A DNA stretch of 64,000 bases, taken from sequence record OR896830.1. One strand, 5' to 3'. This document shows, piece after piece, positions 1,564 to 54,121 of the stretch. The DNA is from Escherichia phage LinBro. How positions within the stretch are numbered: position 1 is the stretch's first letter; every line of letters begins with the position of its first letter. Made by a program: the position numbers and the translations under genes. The notes beneath the pieces are model-generated. The model was not told where the DNA came from. It ran no database searches and worked only from the letters and a program-made list of their open reading frames with translations.

Positions 1564-2463
1564 TTACTTACCTACTGACAGAGGTGCTTCAATCTTTCCT
1601 GCATGTTGGTAGTTGCTAATACCACCAATAAAATCACTTGCGGTAAGGTGTTTTAGGTCACTTAGCGTGTTAAGCTGCACACCAATCTCAAAAGTAGGCG
1701 CATGGAACTCTTTATTGTTCATCAGTTCATAAACCTGCTTCATATGGTTCTGATAAATCTGAGTATCCCCAAAGACACCTATCAAGTACCGTGGAGTATA
1801 TCCAGTCATCTTGCAAAGTACTTCCAGAATAAAACCATAAGATGCAATGTTAAATGGAAGACCTAAAAAGGTGTCTACAGAACGTTGATACCATTGTAAG
1901 TCAACCTCACCTTCGTTAGTGATATAAATCTGAAACAGAACATGACAAGGTGCTAAAGCCATTGAGTTAGCTGCAATATCTGCTGCATTCCAAGCATTAA
2001 CAAGCATGTAACGGTCTGTGATATCACCTTTCATCTTCGTTACTAAGGTCTCTAACTGGTCTACAACACAACCGTTATGACCTTCAAAGTTTCTCCACTG
2101 AACCCCGTAGATTCTCCCACCTGCATCTTCTAACCAGTCTTGCTCAGAAGAATAGTTAGAGCTTAACCAGCGTTTAAAATCATCTGACCAGATAGTCCAA
2201 CGTTCCCCATCATTTTCACCCCAAGTACGGTAACGGAGTTCACCAAGTTTATTCTCACCATTCAGGAACCATAAAGCTTCCCCAATAACTTGCCGTGTAA
2301 ACACCTGTTTAGATGTTAAGAGTGGGAAACCAGTACGCATATCAAAACGAAATTTTGGTGGAGCAAATGCAGAGATAACATCTCCAGTTCGTGTAGTACG
2401 CAGTTCACCAACGGATAAAACATGGTTCAGGATATTTTTGTAACTCAAATCAGCTTGTGACAT
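1564..2463 (-). CDS. thyA: thymidylate synthase
   Basis: 299 aa; active-site region MALAPCHVLFQ and conserved GVQWRNF, DQL..L motifs. Confidence 0.9.
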   Translation of the reverse strand: MSQADLSYKNILNHVLSVGELRTTRTGDVISAFAPPKFRFDMRTGFPLLTSKQVFTRQVIGEALWFLNGENKLGELRYRTWGENDGERWTIWSDDFKRWLSSNYSSEQDWLEDAGGRIYGVQWRNFEGHNGCVVDQLETLVTKMKGDITDRYMLVNAWNAADIAANSMALAPCHVLFQIYITNEGEVDLQWYQRSVDTFLGLPFNIASYGFILEVLCKMTGYTPRYLIGVFGDTQIYQNHMKQVYELMNNKEFHAPTFEIGVQLNTLSDLKHLTASDFIGGISNYQHAGKIEAPLSVGK

Positions 2464-2464
2464 A

Positions 2465-3010
2465 TCAAAAGTGTCCTTTTACTTGTGGAACATAGATTTC
2501 AAAGGTTGCTTTACCATCATCTGAAGGTCTCGACTGCACCTTTGCAAATACACGGTTATCATACAGCTTATCAAAGAAGTTTTCAAAAGGTAAATACACA
2601 GTGGCCTCTTCAGTAACTTTATGGAAAACTGTATGGAAAACTACACCAGCATATGGTAAAGCATCGACAAGAACACCTGCACCACCAATTACAAAGACAT
2701 CTTCATCAATAGAGCTATCAAGATACTTCAAAAATGCTCCAAAGGACTCTTTGCTGGCCTTAGCATACATTACATCTTCTTTACCAAAGTCTATACCATA
2801 ATAAGGTACAGAGTTTGTTAAGATAAGGTTTTCACGTTCTGGTAAAGGCTTACTACCCAGAGTCTTGAAAGTCTCGTTACCCATAACTACTAAGTTATCT
2901 TTAGTAAGTCTCTTAAACTCTTGCATATCCTGTTTATGTCGAGGCCACGGCATACCAGTTGGAGTGCCAAATTCACCGTTTTCACCACTTGCAAATATTA
3001 GTTTAATCAT
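2465..3010 (-). CDS. frd: dihydrofolate reductase
   Basis: 181 aa; N-terminal MIKLIFA..GENG..PW and central VMG..TF motifs of DHFR; adjacent to thyA. Confidence 0.85.
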   Translation of the reverse strand: MIKLIFASGENGEFGTPTGMPWPRHKQDMQEFKRLTKDNLVVMGNETFKTLGSKPLPERENLILTNSVPYYGIDFGKEDVMYAKASKESFGAFLKYLDSSIDEDVFVIGGAGVLVDALPYAGVVFHTVFHKVTEEATVYLPFENFFDKLYDNRVFAKVQSRPSDDGKATFEIYVPQVKGHF

Positions 3011-3267
3011 TTTGTAAACCCTTTCTTAATGAACCAGTTGATGACACTCTTCACAACTTTACTACGATGGTAGATAAAATGTGGAGAGGGTTGGTATGAA
3101 CCATAAGCCCAGAAAGCGATAATTTCATTACACCCTGTACATCGGGTACTTTCTTCAGCAATATGACCGTTGACTATTTCACTTACCTCACCTTGTAAGT
3201 CTGTACACCCACAATGTGGACATCGGATAGGTGTTCCATCAGACTCATAGCAGTGTTCAATTTTCAT
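3007..3267 (-). CDS. zinc-ribbon protein, function unknown
   Basis: CPHCGC...CTGC cysteine pairs. Confidence 0.45.
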   Translation of the reverse strand: MKIEHCYESDGTPIRCPHCGCTDLQGEVSEIVNGHIAEESTRCTGCNEIIAFWAYGSYQPSPHFIYHRSKVVKSVINWFIKKGFTK

Positions 3268-3783
3268 TTACTTAACCTCAAAAACTGGCTCAAGAACCAA
3301 TATAAAGTCTACACAGTCATCTTCTTCATCCAGAATACCATCAAAGTTCTTAGGAACGAAGTCGAAGAGGCTCATAACAAAACAGTCAGAAGTGACCCTG
3401 ATAGTTCCTCCCATGTTCTCTACAGTTAACACTGTACGACTTTCTTTTACCTCCCTCAGAAGATTACTCACAAAGTCATCTAAGAAGTACTTCATCAGTG
3501 ACTTGAAACCTTTAGGATAATCTGTACCAGAGTATGTTTCAATCTGTGGTACAAGCTTAACATTTATACTAGTCTTTGTTAAGAACGTTTTAGAGAACAT
3601 ACTATCAGGTAACTTACAAACAGTCTTTCCAGTACCTTCATGCTCAATCTCAACAAAACCAGCTTCATCGCCACATGTAACTATTTTAAAAGATGCTTCA
3701 TTCTCATACTGTGAAGCCATAAACTTTTTAAGCATTTCTTTAAGGAAATCTGCATGAGCATCCTGTAAGAAGATATCAATCAT
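3268..3783 (-). CDS. hypothetical protein
   Basis: 171-aa ORF in co-directional gene block. Confidence 0.45.
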   Translation of the reverse strand: MIDIFLQDAHADFLKEMLKKFMASQYENEASFKIVTCGDEAGFVEIEHEGTGKTVCKLPDSMFSKTFLTKTSINVKLVPQIETYSGTDYPKGFKSLMKYFLDDFVSNLLREVKESRTVLTVENMGGTIRVTSDCFVMSLFDFVPKNFDGILDEEDDCVDFILVLEPVFEVK

Positions 3784-4663: not shown

Positions 4664-5047
4664 TCAAATACCTGTGCAGCTTCTGTTTTCTAAGAAATAC
4701 TCAACACCGTACATAGCTTTTTGCATCAAATCTTCTTTAAACTGGATACGGTGGTTGAGCATAGACTGTACATCAATATCATCACGGTGTTTCTCTTTAA
4801 TGTTTGCAGATTGCAGGAAATACTCTGCAAGAACACGATACTGGTAGTCAGTCACCTTATCAGTCATCTCTGTTAAAGACTCTTCAGAGATTGGTTTAAG
4901 TAGCTCACCATTCGCTAGAGCAACACCCTTTACAATCTGACAAGTATCCTCTTGGACGCCTGATAAGTTCACATTTGGTAGTTCTGTTGAATGAACTGGT
5001 AAACTCATTGTCATAACCATTGCAGCAGCTAATAAAATCTTTTTCAT
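4664..5047 (-). CDS. secreted or periplasmic protein
   Basis: Signal-peptide-like N-terminus MKKILLAAAMVMTMSLPVHS. Confidence 0.5.
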   Translation of the reverse strand: MKKILLAAAMVMTMSLPVHSTELPNVNLSGVQEDTCQIVKGVALANGELLKPISEESLTEMTDKVTDYQYRVLAEYFLQSANIKEKHRDDIDVQSMLNHRIQFKEDLMQKAMYGVEYFLENRSCTGI

Positions 5048-5319
5048 AATGACCTCAAAGTTATATTAAATTTTGTATTACGTTGAGTATAAAAATAAGC
5101 TATAACACCTGACTTGTCAACAGATTTTATAGCTTATTTGGCAGATTTTTTATAAGGCTACTGCCATCCTTCCATGCTAGACTACGCCATGCCAAACCAG
5201 ACTTCACATCACCTTACCGTGCAATACATCACTTAAAAACCCTCTTAGAAGACTCTTAAGTGATACTGGTGAGTACCCGTTGGTTTATGCTGCTCAGTAT
5301 ACTCACCAAATTTTCTATG

Positions 5320-5508
5320 TCAACAACTTTCTAATAAAGTTTTATGAAGATTTTGCTTAACGACCCGCCTCACATGCCTATGCTCTTTCTTGATAAAGAG
5401 TGACCTCTTCTTAACAGAGCGCCTATTCTTGTAAGTATTACTAGGATACTTATCATGAACCGGACAACAACTCCCCGGATTTGTAAACTTGATAATCTCT
5501 CTTTTCAC
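5320..5508 (-). CDS. small basic protein
   Basis: 62-aa Lys/Arg-rich ORF abutting ligase gene. Confidence 0.3.
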   Translation of the reverse strand: MKREIIKFTNPGSCCPVHDKYPSNTYKNRRSVKKRSLFIKKEHRHVRRVVKQNLHKTLLESC

Positions 5509-6647
5509 TATTCATAATCCCTAATAACTAACCCAACAGGGAACAGCAGAGACCCCTTACGAGTCATCTTCTGGAACTGAACCGTTAAAGGCTTTCCGAT
5601 AAACTCATCAGGGTGCTCAGCAAGATACTGTTTTTTCTCATGAGTAGTCTTCCATGAGACATCTACAAAGACGTTAGGAAGAGTCTCTACAACGAACTTA
5701 CCATGACCACGTTTATCGGTCTTGACACCAGTAACTTTAAACTCTTCAGTGTGCATCTTCTTGTGCTTAATCAAGAAGTATGAACGGTGACCACACTCAT
5801 AGAAGGAGTCTTCAGAGATTGAACGGTACATTGCACCTTCAAACTTAGCTTCAACCCACTTATCATGAGCTTCATCAAACTCTTCCCAAGAATTTACACG
5901 ACGAGATTTAACAGGAACAACTTTACAGCCGTCTCTAAAATCATTCAATGGTGAAGTCTCAATAATATCTCTACGCTCAGGCCACGTCTTAGTACTGTCA
6001 CAGATATCGTACCAGTAAAACTTGAGTAGATGTCGGTCAGGATTGTCTTCATTTTTAATCATAGAGACAATATCTTCTAAGTCCCACCCATGAGCATAAA
6101 TCTCACCATCAAATTCATCAACATCTTTATGAATCCTCAACATTGCCATAATGTCAGGTATTAGCTCAGTAGGAATTTTATAAACAGTATTCTCACGAGA
6201 GTATGCTGTAAATACACTACCAATACTCAAGCGTCTTGAAATTCTACAACGAACACCATCAAACTTCGGTTGAGCATCAGCAGGGAATTTCAAATACTTT
6301 GCATGACTAACCTTTGAAGCATCATGAGCAAGCTGTACACCTACCTTCTCAGTATTCTGTGCAGACTCTTTTGTGTAAGCATAACCTTTACGGTCAACTT
6401 GCTTTTTATACTTAGCAGCAACTTCAAAGAGAGCTTGCTGTTCAGCGTTACGCTCATTCTTTTTACCGATGTTTTTAGGTTCTGCTGTATACTCTTCAAA
6501 CATCATCTTGCCATTTTCTTTACCATAGGTTGTAATAACTTTGTCACCTACAGCAACGCATGACCAGACGTTGAAAGAGCCATCTTTATTTTGTTTGTAT
6601 AGGATTGTCATTTTATTCCTCTGAGTGATACCAAGTGTTGCAAGCAT
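5508..6647 (-). CDS. ATP-dependent DNA ligase
   Basis: Motif I KFDGVR, motif III EFDGEIY, motif IV EGAMYR, motif V LIKHKK in correct order; 379 aa. Confidence 0.8.
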   Translation of the reverse strand: MLATLGITQRNKMTILYKQNKDGSFNVWSCVAVGDKVITTYGKENGKMMFEEYTAEPKNIGKKNERNAEQQALFEVAAKYKKQVDRKGYAYTKESAQNTEKVGVQLAHDASKVSHAKYLKFPADAQPKFDGVRCRISRRLSIGSVFTAYSRENTVYKIPTELIPDIMAMLRIHKDVDEFDGEIYAHGWDLEDIVSMIKNEDNPDRHLLKFYWYDICDSTKTWPERRDIIETSPLNDFRDGCKVVPVKSRRVNSWEEFDEAHDKWVEAKFEGAMYRSISEDSFYECGHRSYFLIKHKKMHTEEFKVTGVKTDKRGHGKFVVETLPNVFVDVSWKTTHEKKQYLAEHPDEFIGKPLTVQFQKMTRKGSLLFPVGLVIRDYE

Positions 6648-7017: not shown

Positions 7018-7278
7018 TCACTCAATAACCGTAGTGTGTGATTGACCATTTTTGCCATAGCTATAAGATGTTGTTGTTTGGGAGTTTGGACATCTGACAA
7101 CAACAATATCTCTGCTTATAGCATCACCATGTAACTTGTATACTCTGCAATCTTGCATCTCTGGTGGGAGGCTGTAAGAAGCATTTTTATCTTCATAAGA
7201 AGGGTTGCAGCCAGATAGAAAAATAACACCAAGCGCAATTACTGATTTCCACATAATACACCCCTGTTTACTGTTCAC
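7018..7278 (-). CDS. putative lipoprotein
   Basis: Lipobox-like LSGC after hydrophobic N-terminus. Confidence 0.45.
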   Translation of the reverse strand: MNSKQGCIMWKSVIALGVIFLSGCNPSYEDKNASYSLPPEMQDCRVYKLHGDAISRDIVVVRCPNSQTTTSYSYGKNGQSHTTVIE

Positions 7279-34228: not shown

Positions 34229-36595
34229 ATGCGCATGGTAAATGACCACGCAGAAGTGATTAAGAGTTCAACTTCTTTGGAGACATCTCAAGCACAGATT
34301 ACAATGACACCTGAAATGTTCAGCCTTCTGAGTTCTGGTGTATACACATTCAAAGAAAGGGCAGTGATTCGTGAACTGTCATGTAATGCAGTAGATGCTC
34401 AGAAAGAAGCTGGAAAAGAGAACATCCCATTCCATGTGCATTTACCTACTCGATTTGAGCCTTACTTTGAAGTCCGTGACTTTGGAACTGGTTTAACCCA
34501 TGACAAAGTAATGAGTTTGTACCTGAACTATGGGGCTTCTACGAAGAATGACTCTAATGATTACATTGGTGCAATGGGTATCGGCTCAAAATCACCATTT
34601 GCAATTGCTCAGTCATTCACAGTGTCTAGCTATGTTGATGGTGTTGTTAATAAGTACTCTGTTTACCTTGAGAATGGTATACCTCAAGTAACTAAGCTTA
34701 CTACTAACCCAACAAATGAACCCAATGGTTTAGCTGTACGTGTGGCAGTTGCTGACCACCGTATTTCAAAGTTCTTTGAAGAGGCTGGTCATGTATACTC
34801 ATACTTTGCTGTAAAACCAGAAAGTAACATTGTATATGATGATGTGTTAGCAGATATGAACGTCATTGCTCGTGAAGAAGGTGTTTATGATGCCATGATT
34901 CATAAGCAAAGCTGGCGTTCTAGTGGTAACAGGACGGAGTTTAATGTGGTGATGGGTAATATTGCCTATCCAGTGAACATGGAAGCATTACTTGGTGATG
35001 ATTTCTTCAAAGTCTTGCCAGAGTTTTTCCGTAGGAGCGTAGACCTTGTAAACATTTACATGCCTATTGGTTCAGTCGCTATTGCAGCTTCTCGTGAAGC
35101 ATTGCAGATGAATGATACGACAAAAAATGTTATCATTGAGGCTACTAAAAAGATAACTGAAGCAATTACAAAGGATGTTATCAAGAAAGTTAATAGCCAA
35201 CCTACACTCATGGATGCTGCACAGGCTTATGCTGAGTTACGTTTGAACTCACGAGAGATGTTTAATGCTGTGTGTCCAAAGTTAGAGTGGGGAGGCGTTA
35301 AGCTTGATTCTTTGGAAGAAGAATTACTAAACATTCGTCGTGGGATTATCTACGCAGAAGACGGCTCAGTCATTTATGAACGTGACGGCAAAGGTAATAT
35401 TAAGGTTGACAGTAAAGGAAACAACATTCCTAAAGTGGACTACCTATACAATCCAGTTGCTTATGTTAAGTTCAACTCTTTAGAGAGTAAGATTCGTGCA
35501 ACAGCACTTTCCTACACTCAAGAGGCGAGCATGTTCAATATCTTTGGTGCAATGCGTAAAAGCCAAATTGAACAGTTTTTGTTCGTGATTAATGACCGTC
35601 GCAATAAAAACGGTACTGAAAAGACTGTAGGCCGCAATCAGATTCTGCGTGGTGCATGTCGAGACTACGCCAGTGAGTCAAGTCTGTTTCACAGATATAA
35701 TGGTATTGTGTTTGTATTCTCGACTGAAAAAGAGTTAGACGACCTAATCAATCTACACAAACTTGATAAAAGCTTGTTAAAGATTGTGAAAATGTCTGAT
35801 AAGGAGCACCATTACCAGCGCAAAGAAGCTGTAAGGGGTGTTGTAAAACTCTGGAAAGCTGTTCCAGCAGAAGGTGTAGCTTCCTATAAAGAGGTTTCAG
35901 AGGACTTTGATACAATTGAAGAACCTCAGCTTTACATTAAGGCAGTTGGTGACACAGTTGATGGCGAATGTTTTTGCTCATCTCCAGAAGATGTAGCTAA
36001 GTCAGTCGCTAATGTTCTAGGGAAGACAGTCTATGTTTTCCGAAAAGCAAATTGGAAAAAGATACCAGAAGACTGGATTGAAGTAGATGAGAAGCTCTTG
36101 AACGACAGCTTAACTGATGTTCACTGGATTAATCATAACAGGTATATGACACGTATCTATATGAATGGTGTTCTTGACCTTACAAGCAGTTGGATTATCA
36201 CCAGAAACTTTACATTCAATAACAGGAAGATTTCTCGTGGTTATTGCTATTCACGAGATACTAACAAAACTATCTTCCTAGAAGGCAATGAAGATGCTGT
36301 AGAGGCAATGTTCGGTAAAATCCAATACGTTGCTGCACCATTTGCATACACTTATACTGTTAGTGTATTGAAAACTTTGAAAGACTGTCTTGACAATGAT
36401 ACAAAGCTTTACAAGAAAATTAAGAAAGCTGGTGACCGCATGGTCATTAAGGTGACAAACTACCTTTCAAAAAGAAAACAAGAAAACTTCTTGCTTTCTC
36501 ATTTAGATTGGAATAAAGTGTCGCCTATCGAAGTGAGTAAGTTCTTAGGCTTTGATGTGAAGTGTGTTCCAGAAGGGACTACAATTTACGATTAA
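34229..36595 (+). CDS. rIIA: rIIA-like protein (GHKL ATPase fold)
   Basis: N-terminal GHKL N-box RELSCNAVDA and G-rich IGAMGIGSKSPF; 788 aa. Confidence 0.6.
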   Translation: MRMVNDHAEVIKSSTSLETSQAQITMTPEMFSLLSSGVYTFKERAVIRELSCNAVDAQKEAGKENIPFHVHLPTRFEPYFEVRDFGTGLTHDKVMSLYLNYGASTKNDSNDYIGAMGIGSKSPFAIAQSFTVSSYVDGVVNKYSVYLENGIPQVTKLTTNPTNEPNGLAVRVAVADHRISKFFEEAGHVYSYFAVKPESNIVYDDVLADMNVIAREEGVYDAMIHKQSWRSSGNRTEFNVVMGNIAYPVNMEALLGDDFFKVLPEFFRRSVDLVNIYMPIGSVAIAASREALQMNDTTKNVIIEATKKITEAITKDVIKKVNSQPTLMDAAQAYAELRLNSREMFNAVCPKLEWGGVKLDSLEEELLNIRRGIIYAEDGSVIYERDGKGNIKVDSKGNNIPKVDYLYNPVAYVKFNSLESKIRATALSYTQEASMFNIFGAMRKSQIEQFLFVINDRRNKNGTEKTVGRNQILRGACRDYASESSLFHRYNGIVFVFSTEKELDDLINLHKLDKSLLKIVKMSDKEHHYQRKEAVRGVVKLWKAVPAEGVASYKEVSEDFDTIEEPQLYIKAVGDTVDGECFCSSPEDVAKSVANVLGKTVYVFRKANWKKIPEDWIEVDEKLLNDSLTDVHWINHNRYMTRIYMNGVLDLTSSWIITRNFTFNNRKISRGYCYSRDTNKTIFLEGNEDAVEAMFGKIQYVAAPFAYTYTVSVLKTLKDCLDNDTKLYKKIKKAGDRMVIKVTNYLSKRKQENFLLSHLDWNKVSPIEVSKFLGFDVKCVPEGTTIYD

Positions 36596-36674: not shown

Positions 36675-37784
36675 ATGACTACTAAAACTAAAGCACAGAT
36701 TGACGCAGAAATTTACAAACTGGTTAAAGAAGGTAAGCTGACTAAAACAGCTATTGCACAGAAATTTAATACTTCAACCCGTTCAGTTGGTCGTGCTGTA
36801 GAGCGTCATGAAGCAACTTTAAAAGGGGATAAGAAGGCAACTTCTACACCAGCTACGAAGACTTTGAAGCAAGTTGCTAAGACATTTAAAAAGAAAGCTG
36901 ACAAACCAGTTGAAAAGGTCGTTAAAGATGCTGTACAGAAAGCTCCGGTAAATAAACTGCATGAAGCTATGCAGAAAGATGACAAGATTGAGTACATGAT
37001 TACTGGTGACTCTGTAATTATGACTTATGGTTCAGAATCTGAAATTGTTGAGTCTACTCATCCGAACTATCAAGAGATTGTAGTTCATGTTGTGAAAGGT
37101 GAGTTCAAAAAAGCCTTTGAATTGATGAACATTCGTAAGTCTATCGAAAACTTCACTCAGGGCGCTATCACAATCAAAGGTGACAAGTTATTCTACGGTG
37201 CTGTTGAGATGCGTTCTACTCTGGTTGACCGTATTCTTCACATGATGAAGACTGGAGATAAAGGTTTCGAACGCCTTGTGATGTTCTTCGAAAAACTGAT
37301 GGAAAACCCATCTAAAGACTCTGTAGAACAACTTTGGGGCTTCGTATCTCACCTTGATGTTGAAATTGATGAAGAAGGCTACATCATTGGTTGGAAGAAA
37401 GTATCTACTCGTGAAGGCAAGCTGGTTGACTCCCACACCTACAGAGTACCTAATGATTTGGGTAACATTGTAGAAATGCCACGTTGGATGGTTGATAATA
37501 ACCGTAACGTGACTTGCTCTCAAGGTCTTCATGTTGGTGCTTGGGATTATGTTCGTTGCTTCTCAGGTGATACAATTCTGAAGGTTCGTGTCCATCCACG
37601 AGACGTTGTATCCGTACCAACTGATTACAACGATATGAAGATGCGCTCGTCTCGTTATGAAGTTGCAGCAATCGTTGATAATCAACGTAAAGTACTGAAA
37701 GCATGGGATGGCAAGACTGAAGCTTTGCATGTCATCGTTGGCACTGCTGGGGAACTTATCTCTCAGCGTAAACGTGAAATCTAA
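36675..37784 (+). CDS. rIIB: rIIB-like protein
   Basis: Directly downstream of rIIA-like gene; LFYGAVEMRSTLVDRIL and VHPRDVVSVPTDYNDMKMR recalled as rIIB-conserved, from memory only. Confidence 0.55.
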   Translation: MTTKTKAQIDAEIYKLVKEGKLTKTAIAQKFNTSTRSVGRAVERHEATLKGDKKATSTPATKTLKQVAKTFKKKADKPVEKVVKDAVQKAPVNKLHEAMQKDDKIEYMITGDSVIMTYGSESEIVESTHPNYQEIVVHVVKGEFKKAFELMNIRKSIENFTQGAITIKGDKLFYGAVEMRSTLVDRILHMMKTGDKGFERLVMFFEKLMENPSKDSVEQLWGFVSHLDVEIDEEGYIIGWKKVSTREGKLVDSHTYRVPNDLGNIVEMPRWMVDNNRNVTCSQGLHVGAWDYVRCFSGDTILKVRVHPRDVVSVPTDYNDMKMRSSRYEVAAIVDNQRKVLKAWDGKTEALHVIVGTAGELISQRKREI

Positions 37785-37797
37785 TAAGTAATTTCTT

Positions 37798-37826
37798 AAA
37801 AGGCTGCTTCGGCGGCCTTTTTTATT
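37798..37826 (+). terminator. rho-independent terminator
   Basis: GGCTGCTTCGGCGGCC hairpin then TTTTTT. Confidence 0.7.
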
Positions 37827-37884: not shown

Positions 37885-38433
37885 ATGAAGAAATTGATTC
37901 TAGGTTTGTGCTTAATGTTTACAGCACACTTATCTTATGCAGTTGACTGCCCAGAGCTATCAATTAGCCAAAAAGTAAACATGTTAAAAGCTTACCAGTA
38001 TGGTGAGAATAACATGGGTAAAGGTTGGGGTATCACTCTAGCTGCTATAGCCTTACAAGAGTCAGAGTTAGGTCTGAAGGTAGAGAATAAAAAGACCCAT
38101 GACTATGGTATCTTCCAGAATCACTTGAAGACTGTTGTAAAGCGTAACAAAATTAGTCCTAATGTGGCTAAAAAGAAACTCTTAAAAGACTTTGACTATG
38201 CTGCGAAGGAAACTCACAAAGAGCTTGAGTTTTGGACAAAGGTGCATGGTCAGCCAAAGTCAAAGAAGACTTTACAAAAAGTTTTAGCATCATATAATGC
38301 TGGGTATTCGTACAGAATCCCTAAAGCTAAGAAATATTCTCAAGATGTCTATAACAACATGAAAGTTATTGCTCAATGTGAATTTGCAACAAACATTTCT
38401 AAGGTAAACCATGAAAAAATTAAAAAAGTCTGA
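37885..38433 (+). CDS. secreted protein, possible lytic transglycosylase
   Basis: Signal peptide MKKLILGLCLMFTAHLSYA; ALQESELG...GIFQ resembles SLT-domain ES..G.MQ motif. Confidence 0.4.
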   Translation: MKKLILGLCLMFTAHLSYAVDCPELSISQKVNMLKAYQYGENNMGKGWGITLAAIALQESELGLKVENKKTHDYGIFQNHLKTVVKRNKISPNVAKKKLLKDFDYAAKETHKELEFWTKVHGQPKSKKTLQKVLASYNAGYSYRIPKAKKYSQDVYNNMKVIAQCEFATNISKVNHEKIKKV

Positions 38434-39106
38434 TGAAGTACTGTGTCATGCTTACGACTTACATCCTCATGAGTTAGGTCTTGATTCCTGTGTATGGACT
38501 CCAGAACAGTGTAGGGATTTTGAAGACACTGCAAGAGAAGTTGTATGTTCACTCGAAGAGTTCCACACATCAGAACCAATTGTGAATGTTGTAGATAAAG
38601 AGACTGGACAAACTATAGGTGTAAGTCGTGATAGCTTAGTCATAGTCAATAAAGACCTTGTAGAAAAAGGGAATCTCATCTTAGCAGATATTGATGGTGT
38701 TCTTACAAATTTTAATCACGAAGATTGTTCAACGGAATTGACTGACGGTTCATTCTCGCAGTACACTAATCTTCTTGACTCTGTAAGAGCAAAACCAACG
38801 TATGTTTTCAATATCATTGATGCAATTGCTAATCATGCTGCTGTTGGACTCTTGACAGCGAGAGGTGAATCTCAGAGAATACCTACTGAGATGTTTTTAA
38901 GGCATAACACAGAGCATGACTACATGCTTTTTATGCGTGGTTTTGGGACTAACTCTATAAGCGCAGAAAGTTTGAAAGTGAGGATGATTCAGTCTTGCAT
39001 TCTGCCTTACTTTAATATAGTATGTTTTATAGAAGACACAGAGAAGAATGTGCAGAAGGTGAACAGAATCCTTCCACACATTAAAACCATGTTAGTTAAA
39101 CATTGA
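38411..39106 (+). CDS. hypothetical protein
   Basis: 231-aa ORF. Confidence 0.4.
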   Translation: MKKLKKSDEVLCHAYDLHPHELGLDSCVWTPEQCRDFEDTAREVVCSLEEFHTSEPIVNVVDKETGQTIGVSRDSLVIVNKDLVEKGNLILADIDGVLTNFNHEDCSTELTDGSFSQYTNLLDSVRAKPTYVFNIIDAIANHAAVGLLTARGESQRIPTEMFLRHNTEHDYMLFMRGFGTNSISAESLKVRMIQSCILPYFNIVCFIEDTEKNVQKVNRILPHIKTMLVKH

Positions 39107-39116
39107 GAGAAAACTT

Positions 39117-39581
39117 ATGAACAATATCATTACGGTAGCACTGGACGATACGGTAAACAAATCTGCAATAGTTCGTAAAATGATTCAAGGTAACTTTGAA
39201 GGTAAAATTTTTCGTGCTGTTAATGTAAAAGCTGATGGCAGCATTCGTGAATATCGTGCATTATTGAATGTTAAAAAACACGTAAAAGGTGCTGGTTCAA
39301 CGACTGCACACAAAGAAAACCTGATGACTATCTATGATATGGGTAAGGCTTCAGAGTTAGGTGCTGAAGGTATCGTTAAAGAAGGTGCTCCGTATCGCTC
39401 TTTCAATCTGGAAACTACTCTTATGCTTTCCTTTACAAGTGGTTCTAAAACAATCACTTACCTCTTTACTGATGCTGCAACGGTATCTGCTATTAAGGAT
39501 AGCACTGTCAAAGCTGGCGTAGTTGCTGCTGCAAAAGCTTCTTCGATGGCTGCGAATATCCTTGCTAAAGTCCTCGGTTAA
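39117..39581 (+). CDS. hypothetical protein
   Basis: 154-aa ORF. Confidence 0.4.
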   Translation: MNNIITVALDDTVNKSAIVRKMIQGNFEGKIFRAVNVKADGSIREYRALLNVKKHVKGAGSTTAHKENLMTIYDMGKASELGAEGIVKEGAPYRSFNLETTLMLSFTSGSKTITYLFTDAATVSAIKDSTVKAGVVAAAKASSMAANILAKVLG

Positions 39582-39591
39582 GGTTAAGATA

Positions 39592-39620
39592 CAGGCTCCT
39601 TCGGGAGCCTTTTTCATTTT
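39592..39620 (+). terminator. rho-independent terminator
   Basis: GGCTCCTTCGGGAGCC hairpin then TTTTT. Confidence 0.7.
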
Positions 39621-39633
39621 AGGAGATTGTTAA

Positions 39634-39981
39634 ATGACATTTAAAGAGTTCTGTCAAGCTACTTTCATAATTGTTTTCTTAGTTGGGGCAGGTGTCTGGG
39701 GAGGATACTCTTACAGAGACTACCAAGTTGCTGAAACTGAGCTAAACAATCAAAAGCTCATAAGTGTTGCTAAAGATGCTTATCAGGAAGGATTAGTCAC
39801 ACTGAGCACCAATTACAAAAATGATTTGAAAGACGTGCTTGCTAAGAATAAGCACACAAAAGAGGTACTAACATATGAAAAGACTAAGCCAGAGTTTTAT
39901 AATGTTTGTGTTACTGATAATTATGTCAGGGTGTTCAACGAACAAAGTGAGCAGTACATTCAAAAACTCCCAAGTAAGTGA
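39634..39981 (+). CDS. putative inner-membrane spanin (Rz-like)
   Basis: Single N-terminal TM helix then periplasmic region; second ORF embedded in +1 frame. Confidence 0.45.
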   Translation: MTFKEFCQATFIIVFLVGAGVWGGYSYRDYQVAETELNNQKLISVAKDAYQEGLVTLSTNYKNDLKDVLAKNKHTKEVLTYEKTKPEFYNVCVTDNYVRVFNEQSEQYIQKLPSK

Positions 39982-40144
39982 GAGTGATAAGTACACCCAA
40001 GAAGAATCACGGTATATCATCAAAGGCAACACAGGCAGCGATGTAGCAGCAGCCCTTGAGTTCTATCGTGACGGCTTTTACCAGTGCACAATCAAAGCTA
40101 ACAACCTTATTGACATGATTTTATTAGGGAATAAGCAGCAATGA
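39875..40144 (+). CDS. putative outer-membrane lipoprotein spanin (Rz1-like)
   Basis: Lipobox LIIMSGC; overlaps 3' end of preceding ORF in another frame. Confidence 0.45.
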   Translation: MKRLSQSFIMFVLLIIMSGCSTNKVSSTFKNSQVSESDKYTQEESRYIIKGNTGSDVAAALEFYRDGFYQCTIKANNLIDMILLGNKQQ

Positions 40145-41134: not shown

Positions 41135-41920
41135 ATGGGTATTGTAAAAATAATCAATGGTGATATCTTTGCCGCATTTGATAAAGGTAAGTTTGACATC
41201 ATCGGTCACGGTTGCAACTGTATGAATTTAATGGGTGCAGGTATCGCTGACAAGATTTCTAAACTTTACCCAAAAGCATATGAGACCGATACAGAAGTTT
41301 ATCTATATGCAGGTGGTATAGGACACAAGCCCTGTGAAAATTTACTAGGCAATTTCTCTGTAGCACGTTTAGAACAAGGCCGTATAGCTAACCTTTACAC
41401 TCAGCTTAAGACTGGTAAAGATGCCCGATACAGTGCTTTAGAATCATCTTTGAAACAGCTTAACAGATACTGTGAAGTTAACCAGTTGAAGAAAGTTGGT
41501 CTACCTATGATTGGTGCAGGTATCGGTGGGCTAGACCCTCAAGCCGTCACAGTTATCATTAATCAGGTGATGAAGAGTGTAGATGTGTATCTGTATGTCT
41601 ATGAAGGAGAGATGTACCACAAGTTACGCTCAGGTTGGAAGAACTACTGTGAACCAGAATACTTTGCAGGTGTAGTAACGTTCACAGACAATACAGTTAC
41701 CCTCTTCAGACGAAGAAAAGGTAAGATACATCAAAGTAACCCTCCGGTTGAAAAGATGTCTCTGAGTAACGCTCTAGTTACCCACCTGTCGAAGAGCAAT
41801 CACAGAATTGCAGTAACATTTGGCAGTGATGCAGATACTTATATCTATGCAAGGACTGATGAGGGTATTGAGTTAATCTTCTCTTCACCAGAGCTTACCT
41901 TCTTAGACGCAAAGAACTAA
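41135..41920 (+). CDS. Macro-domain protein (ADP-ribose binding or hydrolysing)
   Basis: N-terminal IINGDIF...DIIGHGCNC...MGAGIA matches macro-domain GDIT..D.IVNAAN..GGG pattern. Confidence 0.55.
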   Translation: MGIVKIINGDIFAAFDKGKFDIIGHGCNCMNLMGAGIADKISKLYPKAYETDTEVYLYAGGIGHKPCENLLGNFSVARLEQGRIANLYTQLKTGKDARYSALESSLKQLNRYCEVNQLKKVGLPMIGAGIGGLDPQAVTVIINQVMKSVDVYLYVYEGEMYHKLRSGWKNYCEPEYFAGVVTFTDNTVTLFRRRKGKIHQSNPPVEKMSLSNALVTHLSKSNHRIAVTFGSDADTYIYARTDEGIELIFSSPELTFLDAKN

Positions 41921-41990
41921 GAAATTTCGTAGTATATTCACAATAGACTAAGCCTTTCTTATCTGGTAAATTTTTCAGGTAAGGAGGGCT

Positions 41991-42172
41991 TTTTCATTTC
42001 AGATTTGTGCAGGTAGAGTTCTGTAGAGAAATCTGTAGAGAGAATTTTAAACTCCAAAGAGAAAATTCATTTTCAAACTGTGCAGGTAATCTCCAAAGAG
42101 CTTTTTCATTTTCAAAACGTGCAGACCCCGCTCAGGTCGGGCAAGAAAAATCATTTTAGAATTGTGCAGGTA
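41991..42172 (+). repeat. four direct repeats TCATTTT(N3-6)GTGCAGGTA
   Basis: Copies near 41991, 42066, 42104 and 42149; a related TTTTGTGCAGAG follows the rIIB terminator at about 37830. Confidence 0.5.
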
Positions 42173-53656: not shown

Positions 53657-54121
53657 TTACTTTGGATATACACTGTCAAGATAAATGTCAGCTTCCATTC
53701 TACGTCTGTTTTTCAGACCGTTTGAGGTGACCTTCTTACCTTTGACTGTAACCTTGTTCCACCACTGCATAGCTTCTGCGCAACCTACCTTATTACCAGC
53801 ATTGTGGCGCTTGATAAATGTAGAATCCTGCATAGCTGTGATGCCGATGTTGTATGTTTCACTTACAAGTGCATCAAACTCGTTCTGAGAAGTTGGAACC
53901 TTGATAGCTTTGTTCACTGCTGCAACGAACTTTTCAACATCTGCGAGAAGATACTGTTCAGCTTGTTCAGCGGTAATCTTCATACCCATCTTAACAGGCT
54001 TCCCACCAATACGAATTGTCCCATACCCAATTGTTGGGATTCCGGCAGAGTCTTCGTAAGCCTCTAACTTCAGACCTTCGAAGAACTTAATAGCATCTAA
54101 ACCTTTTCTTGAGAGTTGCAT
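53657..54121 (-). CDS. endolysin, T4-type lysozyme
   Basis: EGLKLEAYEDSAGIPTIGYGT with catalytic Glu/Asp/Thr spacing; 154 aa. Confidence 0.85.
   Translation of the reverse strand: MQLSRKGLDAIKFFEGLKLEAYEDSAGIPTIGYGTIRIGGKPVKMGMKITAEQAEQYLLADVEKFVAAVNKAIKVPTSQNEFDALVSETYNIGITAMQDSTFIKRHNAGNKVGCAEAMQWWNKVTVKGKKVTSNGLKNRRRMEADIYLDSVYPK

Follow-up and report, generated by a model that had tools for sequence, protein, structure and literature searches.

The region described here belongs to a stretch of 64,000 nucleotides (nt) of DNA from Escherichia phage LinBro (sequence record OR896830.1), which was analysed over its whole length and is called the window. Between positions 37885 and 40144, the + strand carries a gene for a predicted exported protein of the Vs.1 family, referred to as the SLT-like protein, and, two genes further on, a pair of overlapping genes predicted to encode the two components of a spanin: a protein anchored in the inner membrane (i-spanin) and a lipoprotein of the outer membrane (o-spanin). 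By nucleotide comparison, the window is part of the genome of a Felix O1-like myophage, genus Felixounavirus: the 3-kb stretch around these genes shows an identity of 98.7% with Felixounavirus LF82P5 and of 98.3% with Escherichia phage ekra, and 257 of the 259 phage records matching this 3-kb query cover at least 80% of it. The G+C content of the window is about 39%.

The first gene of the pair (39634-39981, +) encodes the i-spanin, a protein of 115 amino acids, so assigned by its match to phrog_1152, "Rz-like spanin", in PHROG (expectation value, E, 1e-41), by hydropathy and by the annotation of its relatives. A single hydrophobic span, FCQATFIIVFLVGAGVWGG, is found at the N-terminus, at about residues 6-24, with Kyte-Doolittle means of 1.75 over 19 residues and 2.91 over 11; the remainder is hydrophilic, and a single conserved cysteine, C92 (NVCVTD), is present in the periplasmic domain. 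The start is preceded by a strong Shine-Dalgarno sequence, AGGAG. The second gene (39875-40144, +) encodes the o-spanin, as an 89-residue precursor with a predicted mature form of 70 residues, recognized by the lipobox IMSGC, a Shine-Dalgarno sequence, a PHROG match and its conservation. Its N-terminus, MKRLSQSFIMFVLLIIMSGC followed by S, fits a PROSITE PS51257-style lipobox rule, with the lipobox cysteine at position 20 and Ser, not Asp, at +2. The Shine-Dalgarno sequence, GAGGT, lies 7 nt upstream of the ATG, while two later in-frame ATGs lack such a site. The best PHROG match of the o-spanin is the unnamed phrog_4180 (1e-50), followed weakly by phrog_456, "Rz-like spanin" (2e-4). The mature protein contains no prolines and one further conserved cysteine, C71 (FYQC). 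When both spanins were scanned with Pfam and NCBIfam, only sub-threshold noise was returned.

The specificity of the lipoprotein signal was evaluated by running the same rule on all 1,266 start-anchored open reading frames (ORFs) of at least 40 amino acids, in the six frames of the window. Only three distinct ORFs pass it, namely the o-spanin, an ORF at 7018-7278 (-) and a probable artefact, for a background of about 0.2%; since so few pass, the lipobox of the o-spanin is not a chance match. The o-spanin ORF shares 107 nt with the i-spanin gene, in the +1 frame, and then runs for 163 nt past the i-spanin stop: the architecture is overlapped, and not embedded, as had been proposed in an earlier, sequence-only reading of this DNA. 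That reading had placed a pair of Rz/Rz1-like spanins, one with a transmembrane anchor and the other with a lipobox, two genes downstream of the SLT-like gene. The pair is indeed found there, after the genes at 38411-39106 and 39117-39581, and both the transmembrane span and the lipoprotein signal, checked by hydropathy and by the lipobox rule, are present, in a layout which is kept in four other lineages.

These lineages emerge from a tblastn search with the i-spanin, which matched 401 phage records. The protein is 97-100% identical to that of many Felixounavirus isolates; identity falls to 77% in Mooglevirus, 37% in Hafnia phage Zyzzx, about 33% in the Kuravirus podophages and 27% in Erwinia Kolesnikvirus-like phages. 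For one record per lineage (Mordin for Mooglevirus, Zyzzx, Kuravirus ShigP1 and Erwinia Coenus), the sequence across the 3' end of the i-spanin gene was translated in the +1 frame: a lipobox ORF is kept in all four, over a range of i-spanin identity from 27 to 77%. Each of these ORFs starts with a basic N-terminus and a hydrophobic core, after which the lipobox cysteine is followed by Ser-Thr, the lipobox ending in AMITSGC in Zyzzx, SMSAC in ShigP1 and MTTASC in Coenus, before ST. The o-spanin ORFs end in a common motif, (L/A)E(F/W/Y)(Y/W)(R/Q)...(Y/F).(C)....NGL(I/L)D. For the i-spanins, the C-terminal motif EKTKP.FYNVC.(S/T)D.YV..FNE is found in four of the five lineages, and in a looser form in Erwinia Coenus. 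Both C92 of the i-spanin and C71 of the o-spanin are kept in all five lineages compared; one cysteine for each periplasmic domain is in line with the survey of Kongari et al. 2018 (PMC6139136), where cysteines for intermolecular disulfides are reported in 507 of 528 spanin systems.

Comparison with Mordin also reveals how the overlap evolves. Within the 107 nt shared by the two genes, the window and Mordin are 87% identical, with substitutions spread as 4, 5 and 5 over the codon positions; in the parts coding for a single protein, identity is 74-78%, and third positions account for 30 of 54 and 28 of 42 substitutions. The pattern in the overlap shows a dual-coding constraint. Both genes are annotated in GenBank, at these positions, as i- and o-spanin in ekra, Mordin, Sf16, JN01 and others, and those of Felix01, FO1a, UAB_Phi87, FSL SP-010/012 and phiEa21-4 are listed as "overlapped" two-component spanins by Kongari et al. 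2018 (PMC6139136). Judged from signals and conservation, the overlapping pair is a genuine two-component spanin.

In several GenBank records, the annotated start of the o-spanin falls 3' of the signal peptide and of the lipobox. This is the case for ekra (5424-5645), Zyzzx (2805-2984), ShigP1 (2766-2939) and Coenus (2859-2987; all coordinates refer to record fragments), where the full ORF begins further upstream, within the i-spanin gene. In several other records the o-spanin gene has no annotation.

The SLT-like gene (37885-38433, +) encodes a protein of 182 amino acids, assigned to the GH23 enzymes of the Vs.1 family by homology, motifs and fold, with a predicted signal peptide at residues 1-19 and a predicted catalytic Glu59. 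Its N-terminus, MKKLILGLCLMFTAHLSYA followed by VD, combines two lysines with a hydrophobic core of 13 residues and has S-Y-A at -3 to -1, which fits the -3/-1 rule of a Sec-type signal peptide. The motifs QESELG, DYGIFQ and SYNAGY follow in this order, along with Y151. Two alignments were analyzed, the former with 15 sequences, the latter with 13 diverged homologues, including members from T4, Kuttervirus, Aeromonas and Vibrio phages: E59, G63, Q78, Y137, N138, G140 and Y151 are invariant in both. S60 is conserved in at least 90% of the sequences, two members having Thr instead; S136 does not vary in the second alignment, and G75 is nearly invariant. Cys22 and Cys165 are either both present or both absent throughout the first alignment (15 sequences) and in all but one sequence of the second; such a co-occurrence fits a periplasmic disulfide.

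A protein database search with the SLT-like protein found 21 relatives, down to 31% identity. By BLASTP, T4 Vs.1 is 32% identical to it (E 2e-16), residues 1-155 aligning with 1-163, which identifies the protein as a homologue of T4 Vs.1; in PHROG, the SLT-like protein matches phrog_600 (1e-57). T4 Vs.1 passes the cutoff for the Pfam SLT family (PF01464), with 25.1 bits, and precomputed PF01464 matches are available for five of the six most distant homologues (P0015, P0016, P0018-P0020). As for solved structures, a search of the PDB with the single sequence gave no match at E up to 10, while a profile built from the alignment retrieved EtgA, a transglycosylase of type III secretion (7e-4), and goose lysozyme (7e-3). 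The AlphaFold2 (AF2) model has a mean predicted local distance difference test (pLDDT) score of 84.8, above 90 for residues 30-160. When this model was compared by Foldseek, the top matches, with probabilities up to 1.0, all belonged to the GH23 superfamily: the g-type lysozymes of cod and ostrich, a Ralstonia GH23 chitinase, EtgA, the SLT Cj0843, MltF and phiKZ gp144. The protein is accordingly modelled with a goose-lysozyme-like, alpha-helical fold.

Membership in the signal-anchor-release (SAR)/signal-peptide class of endolysins was considered and rejected: the hydrophobic core, LILGLCLMFTAHL, is only 13 residues long, Leu-rich and followed by the S-Y-A cleavage-type site, no gene for a small membrane protein is adjacent, and a soluble GH24 endolysin is encoded separately. 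A function in entry is also unlikely, since the protein is missing from the virion proteome of Felix O1 (PMC3185647).

A tblastn search of phage sequences found a Vs.1-like homologue in 2,142 records, including vs.1 of JS10 and Acj9 and genes of Kuttervirus (ViI-like), Aeromonas and Vibrio phages. The members examined outside the Ounavirinae, from T4, Kuttervirus, a Vibrio phage and metagenomic phage contigs, are located among early or nucleotide-metabolism genes: their neighbours are nrd genes, a topoisomerase, a recombination endonuclease, regB and vs, and not lysis genes. On the metagenomic phage contig whose flanks were covered far enough (L018), which carries a distant member, a separate Phage_lysozyme gene is found. 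Among the Ounavirinae examined, the SLT-like gene lies within about 1.2-1.8 kb of the spanins in Felixounavirus, Mooglevirus and Zyzzx. In Kolesnikvirus it is found upstream, at a distance of about 2.7 kb, of an ORF which corresponds to the i-spanin by position. In Kuravirus, which carries the same spanin family, neither a lysin nor an SLT-like gene is annotated within 2.4 kb upstream of the spanins.

Two observations on database records accompany this family. One homologue is filed under Campylobacter coli (contig ACBEZJ010000004.1, assembly GCA_053226485.1), and a cellular origin was rejected for it: the 214-kb contig encodes, next to the Vs.1-like gene, chimallin, the shell protein of PhiKZ-type nuclei, and is probably, from this gene content, the genome of a jumbo phage inside a bacterial assembly. 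Moreover, the labels "RegB endoribonuclease" and "endoribonuclease" are widespread on Vs.1 homologues (for example, L012 at 2402-3019 and L005 at 751-1299), although the proteins are GH23/SLT-like. The note "similar to T4 endoribonuclease RegB" in the Mordin record was checked and rejected, Pfam, searched at E up to 0.1, giving only SLT and a sub-threshold DUF1151. The similarity is to vs.1; the name of its neighbour in T4, regB, seems to have been transferred to it, and has spread by mis-annotation.

The order of the genes around the region, on the + strand, is rIIA (34229-36595), rIIB (36675-37784, directly upstream of the SLT-like gene unit), SLT-like gene, PseT-like phosphatase gene, a gene for a conserved protein, i-spanin, o-spanin, small genes of unassigned function and a macro-domain gene (41135-41920). 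The phosphatase gene (38411-39106, +) matches phrog_3970, "polynucleotide kinase" (1e-134). Its HAD-type product weakly matches, by BLASTP, the phosphatase domain of T4 PseT around the DxDG motif (DIDGVL), and inspection of the sequence revealed no Walker A motif: the product has the HAD 3'-phosphatase part only, with no P-loop kinase domain, and its naming as a kinase is probably a mistake. The next gene (39117-39581, +) encodes a conserved protein of 154 amino acids, with no assigned function, which matches phrog_2267 (6e-49) and shows only sub-threshold similarity to WYL_2/SH3 in Pfam. Neither of the two is a lysis gene. The macro-domain ("A1pp phosphatase") gene, which closes the transcription unit of the spanins in the window, recurs elsewhere: it directly follows the spanins in ShigP1 (2939-3379) and is found two genes from vs.1 in T4 (tk.4, 4923-5390; coordinates of record fragments).

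Three hairpin terminators, all on the + strand, are identical in sequence to t2, t5 and t13 of Felix O1 (PMC3185647, Table 2). The one after rIIB (t2, 37798-37821) has a GC-rich stem of 10 base pairs, followed by a T-run; t5 (39593-39610), a strong terminator, is formed by AGGCTCCTTCGGGAGCCT and followed by TTTTC; t13 (41950-41991) follows the macro-domain gene. After rIIB, they cut the block into two units, one composed of the SLT-like, phosphatase and 154-residue protein genes, the other extending from the spanins to the macro-domain gene. As t5 ends 2-3 nt before the ribosome-binding site of the i-spanin, leaving no room for a promoter, transcription of the spanins must depend on read-through or on a promoter within the gene upstream. 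In Felix O1, ORFs 3, 4 and 6 (SLT-like protein, phosphatase and i-spanin) and ORF 35 (lysin) peak at 25 min by reverse-transcription PCR (PMC3185647), the ORF numbers being matched here through the terminator names and the annotation of wV8. The T4-type late promoter, TATAAATA, occurs at three sites in the window, fewer than expected by chance and none near the region. A scan for sigma-70-like promoters gave 20 matches, barely above the 15.5 found in shuffled sequences, and no conclusion on promoters was drawn from it.

The other lysis functions are located elsewhere in the window. A soluble endolysin of GH24 (T4/lambda-type), 154 amino acids long, is encoded on the opposite strand (53657-54121, -), 13.5 kb from the end of the spanin pair. 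It matches phrog_7, "endolysin" (2e-57), the spacing E15-8aa-D24-5aa-T30 can be read in its sequence, and no signal peptide or transmembrane segment is found, the maximum hydropathy over 19 residues being 0.81. This protein corresponds to gp35 of Felix O1, "the lysin" of PMC3185647. A putative holin of 123 amino acids, with one N-terminal hydrophobic segment, is encoded by the last gene after the tail-fibre gene (1150-1521, +); its homologues are annotated as "holin" or "putative holin" in Mordin, Moogle, SUSP1 and others. A PHROG search with seven small hydrophobic ORFs of the window found no holin family, this ORF matching phrog_4038, of unknown function, and Pfam and NCBIfam gave for it only sub-threshold noise. 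The assignment is thus taken from the annotation of relatives, no holin family having been matched.

Lysis functions are therefore split over three loci, as in T4, with the putative holin at 1150-1521, spanins at 39634-40144 and endolysin at 53657-54121, and not grouped in a contiguous holin-endolysin-spanin cassette, the endolysin being on the other strand. Such a split had been anticipated by the sequence-only reading, which had noticed the T4-type lysozyme about 14 kb away on the other strand and had correctly described a signal-peptide protein with an SLT-like ES...GIFQ motif (now E59-S, GIFQ, SYNAG and Y151 at 37885-38433). Its view of the region as a "second lysis-like cluster", instead, does not hold: the HAD-phosphatase gene, the gene following it and terminator t5 separate the SLT-like gene from the spanins, and the supposed cluster member belongs to the Vs.1 family, found elsewhere among early and nucleotide-metabolism genes. 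Scattered lysis genes had already been described for Felix O1-like phages in the genome papers of Moogle (PMC4319497) and Meda (PMC6486253), and that of Felix O1 reports that the lysin has no adjacent holin gene, "as with coliphage T4" (PMC3185647).

Taken together, these data make it very probable that the region contains two unrelated neighbours, an overlapped spanin pair and a Sec-exported, Vs.1-like GH23 accessory enzyme. For the spanins, a mechanism may be proposed with high confidence, by analogy with lambda and T4. The N-terminal helix would hold the i-spanin in the inner membrane, while the o-spanin would be exported and lipidated at Cys20; as its +2 residue is Ser, and not Asp, it would then go to the outer membrane. 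Their periplasmic domains would bind through the conserved C-terminal segments, bridging the envelope. The GH24 endolysin would be let out by a holin encoded elsewhere, probably that at 1150-1521, and, once murein is removed, the spanin complex would fuse inner and outer membranes, completing lysis.

For the Vs.1-like protein confidence is moderate. The most likely reading is that of an active lytic transglycosylase of the periplasm, small and "specialised" like EtgA, although transglycosylases and g-type muramidases are not separable from sequence alone; it would introduce limited cuts into murein during infection, as an accessory and not as the endolysin. T4 mutants without lysozyme e fail to lyse although vs.1 is intact, and it is from this defect, and from the coexistence with a canonical endolysin, that we infer the accessory status. 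The Vs.1 family, which extends over T4-like, ViI-like, Felix O1-like and KVP40-like phages and a chimallin-encoding jumbo phage, may even have a dedicated periplasmic job in the infected cell, either pre-cutting of murein for fast lysis or superinfection exclusion through a change in the wall: more than 2,000 genomes keep it, while T4, Felix O1-like phages and contig L018 also encode a separate endolysin. This suggestion is a tentative one; if true, the family would be more than a redundant lysin.

A different role is conceivable for the same protein, whose signal peptide and intact set of catalytic motifs would also suit a second, Sec-exported and holin-independent endolysin, forming with the spanins a functional second lysis module. 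Several GenBank records do call it "putative lysin", its gene stays near the spanins in the Ounavirinae examined (about 1.2-1.8 kb, 2.7 kb in Kolesnikvirus) and, in Felix O1, its transcript peak coincides with those of the lysin and of the i-spanin. The two unrelated genes and the terminator lying in between, however, argue against it, as do the homologues outside the Ounavirinae, located among nrd, topoisomerase and recombination genes, the separate lysozymes of T4 and L018, and the Kuravirus spanins, not preceded within 2.4 kb by any annotated lysin or SLT-like gene. The lysis defect of T4 e mutants, despite vs.1, points in the same direction, and a freely active exported muramidase, if present by mid-infection, would kill the host before assembly ends. 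Overall, a second endolysin seems improbable. A periplasmic function outside lysis, such as remodelling or nicking of murein for a block to superinfection or resistance to lysis from without, for cell enlargement in a prolonged infection or for release of muropeptides, may be seen as a possible, if minority, explanation. The position of the gene directly after rIIA/rIIB, in an early/middle transcription block, would suit it, and so would the retention of the family across over 2,000 genomes of large virulent phages, among early genes where examined, and the nature of the closest solved relative, EtgA, a "specialised" transglycosylase which makes local gaps. The searchable literature, on the other hand, offers no phenotype for T4 vs.1, and sequence does not tell such roles from that of a lysis accessory.

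As for the spanins, the lipobox ORF might be a chance out-of-frame ORF, only the i-spanin-like gene being real, as the many GenBank records omitting the o-spanin, or starting it past the signal peptide, could suggest, along with the report of an i-spanin alone in one isolate (PMC8300805). This explanation is effectively refuted by the comparative data: the ORF recurs in five lineages with its basic N-terminus, core, lipobox cysteine and C-terminal motif, even where identity of the i-spanin falls to 27%, and substitutions in the overlap follow a dual-coding pattern. The well-placed Shine-Dalgarno sequence, the background of about 0.2% for such signals and the inclusion of the gene in a curated spanin survey (PMC6139136) also speak against it.

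Some results weigh against the interpretation of the region as a spanin pair next to an accessory GH23 enzyme. The SLT-like protein itself scores 19.2 bits (E 9e-4) with Pfam SLT, below the gathering cutoff of 21.3 bits, and its Foldseek matches, in spite of the high probabilities, reach an E of only 4e-3 and a TM-score of about 0.5. The o-spanin, unlike lambda Rz1, has no proline, and its match to a spanin PHROG is weak (2e-4); the single-sequence AF2 model of the i-spanin is poor (pLDDT 46.9), helical at most, and does not support a coiled-coil. BLAST comparison of the window spanins with PseT.3/PseT.2 of T4 gave no alignment. The export signals (signal peptide, lipobox and transmembrane span) come from rule-based checks written for this analysis, and the accessory status of the Vs.1-like enzyme is drawn from the two facts mentioned above only. 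Finally, a literature search found no experiment on the spanins or on the Vs.1-like protein of this phage; for Vs.1 function in general, nothing was found beyond a comparative paper of 2006, and no phenotype of T4 vs.1.

The spanin pair and the scattered layout are already known, the spanins having been catalogued and the layout published for this phage group (PMC4319497, PMC6486253, PMC3185647), and the similarity of Vs.1 to SLT was pointed out twenty years ago. The practical value of the analysis lies in annotation: the o-spanin is missing from many GenBank records of these phages, or begins past its signal peptide, and Vs.1 homologues are widely mislabelled as "RegB endoribonuclease" or "lysin". 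The one mildly interesting thread is the role that an exported GH23 enzyme, shared by several families of large virulent phages, may have before lysis.

Other exported products and features were encountered in the window. The ORF at 7018-7278 (-), the second one with a real-looking lipoprotein signal (MNSKQGCIMWKSVIALGVIFLSGC followed by N), is located among DNA-metabolism genes and matches phrog_902, of unknown function; from its signal, it could be an exclusion lipoprotein of the Cor/Llp type. The ORF at 4664-5047 (-) encodes 127 amino acids with a Sec-type signal peptide, beginning with MKKILLAAAMVMTMSLPVHS, and matches phrog_4332, also of unknown function. Between 58665 and 63571, on the + strand, 26 tRNA genes are found, with small ORFs interspersed; Felix O1 reportedly has 22. 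Felixounavirus DNA, with 93-98% identity, is also present in the 147-kb record of Staphylococcus phage SA1 (GU169904.1) and in two Campylobacter-named records, which, from these matches, look like chimeric or contaminated assemblies.

When compared with known systems, the spanins of Felix O1, UAB_Phi87 and FSL SP-010, as listed in SpaninDB, are the same genes, in the same place after t5 and with the same overlapped layout, with no substantive difference. The pair resembles lambda Rz/Rz1 and P2 LysB/LysC, in that an N-anchored inner-membrane protein is combined with an outer-membrane lipoprotein encoded in the +1 frame, both with periplasmic cysteines, and in the presumed role, disruption of the outer membrane. 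This likeness is one of architecture; Pfam gives no spanin family for either window protein. The lambda pair is embedded, while the window pair is overlapped, as in P2; the mature o-spanin is longer than that of Rz1 (70 versus 40 amino acids) and lacks proline, whereas Rz1 is proline-rich. Unlike in lambda and P2, the spanin genes of the window lie outside any lysis cassette. In this respect they recall PseT.3/PseT.2 of T4, which are also away from holin and endolysin (t and e), in an early/middle block and near a PseT-type gene; the T4 genes, however, are of the "separated" type (PMC6139136) and upstream of pseT, while those of the window overlap and are located downstream of a phosphatase-only homologue.

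The SLT-like protein resembles T4 Vs.1, encoded between regB and vs: the two are 32% identical over the full length, have nearly the same length (182 and 181 amino acids, respectively), and share a signal peptide and the ES, G.FQ and SYN.G motifs. T4 Vs.1 differs by the absence of the Cys22/Cys165 pair, by an insertion after the first helix and by its gene neighbours. The transglycosylases of the EtgA/IpgF/IagB/VirB1 type are likewise small (about 150-190 amino acids), Sec-exported, single-domain GH23 proteins. The relationship to EtgA is remote, with 17% identity in the structural alignment, and enzymes of the EtgA type are tied to, and activated by, a secretion apparatus, while no such partner is known for the SLT-like protein.

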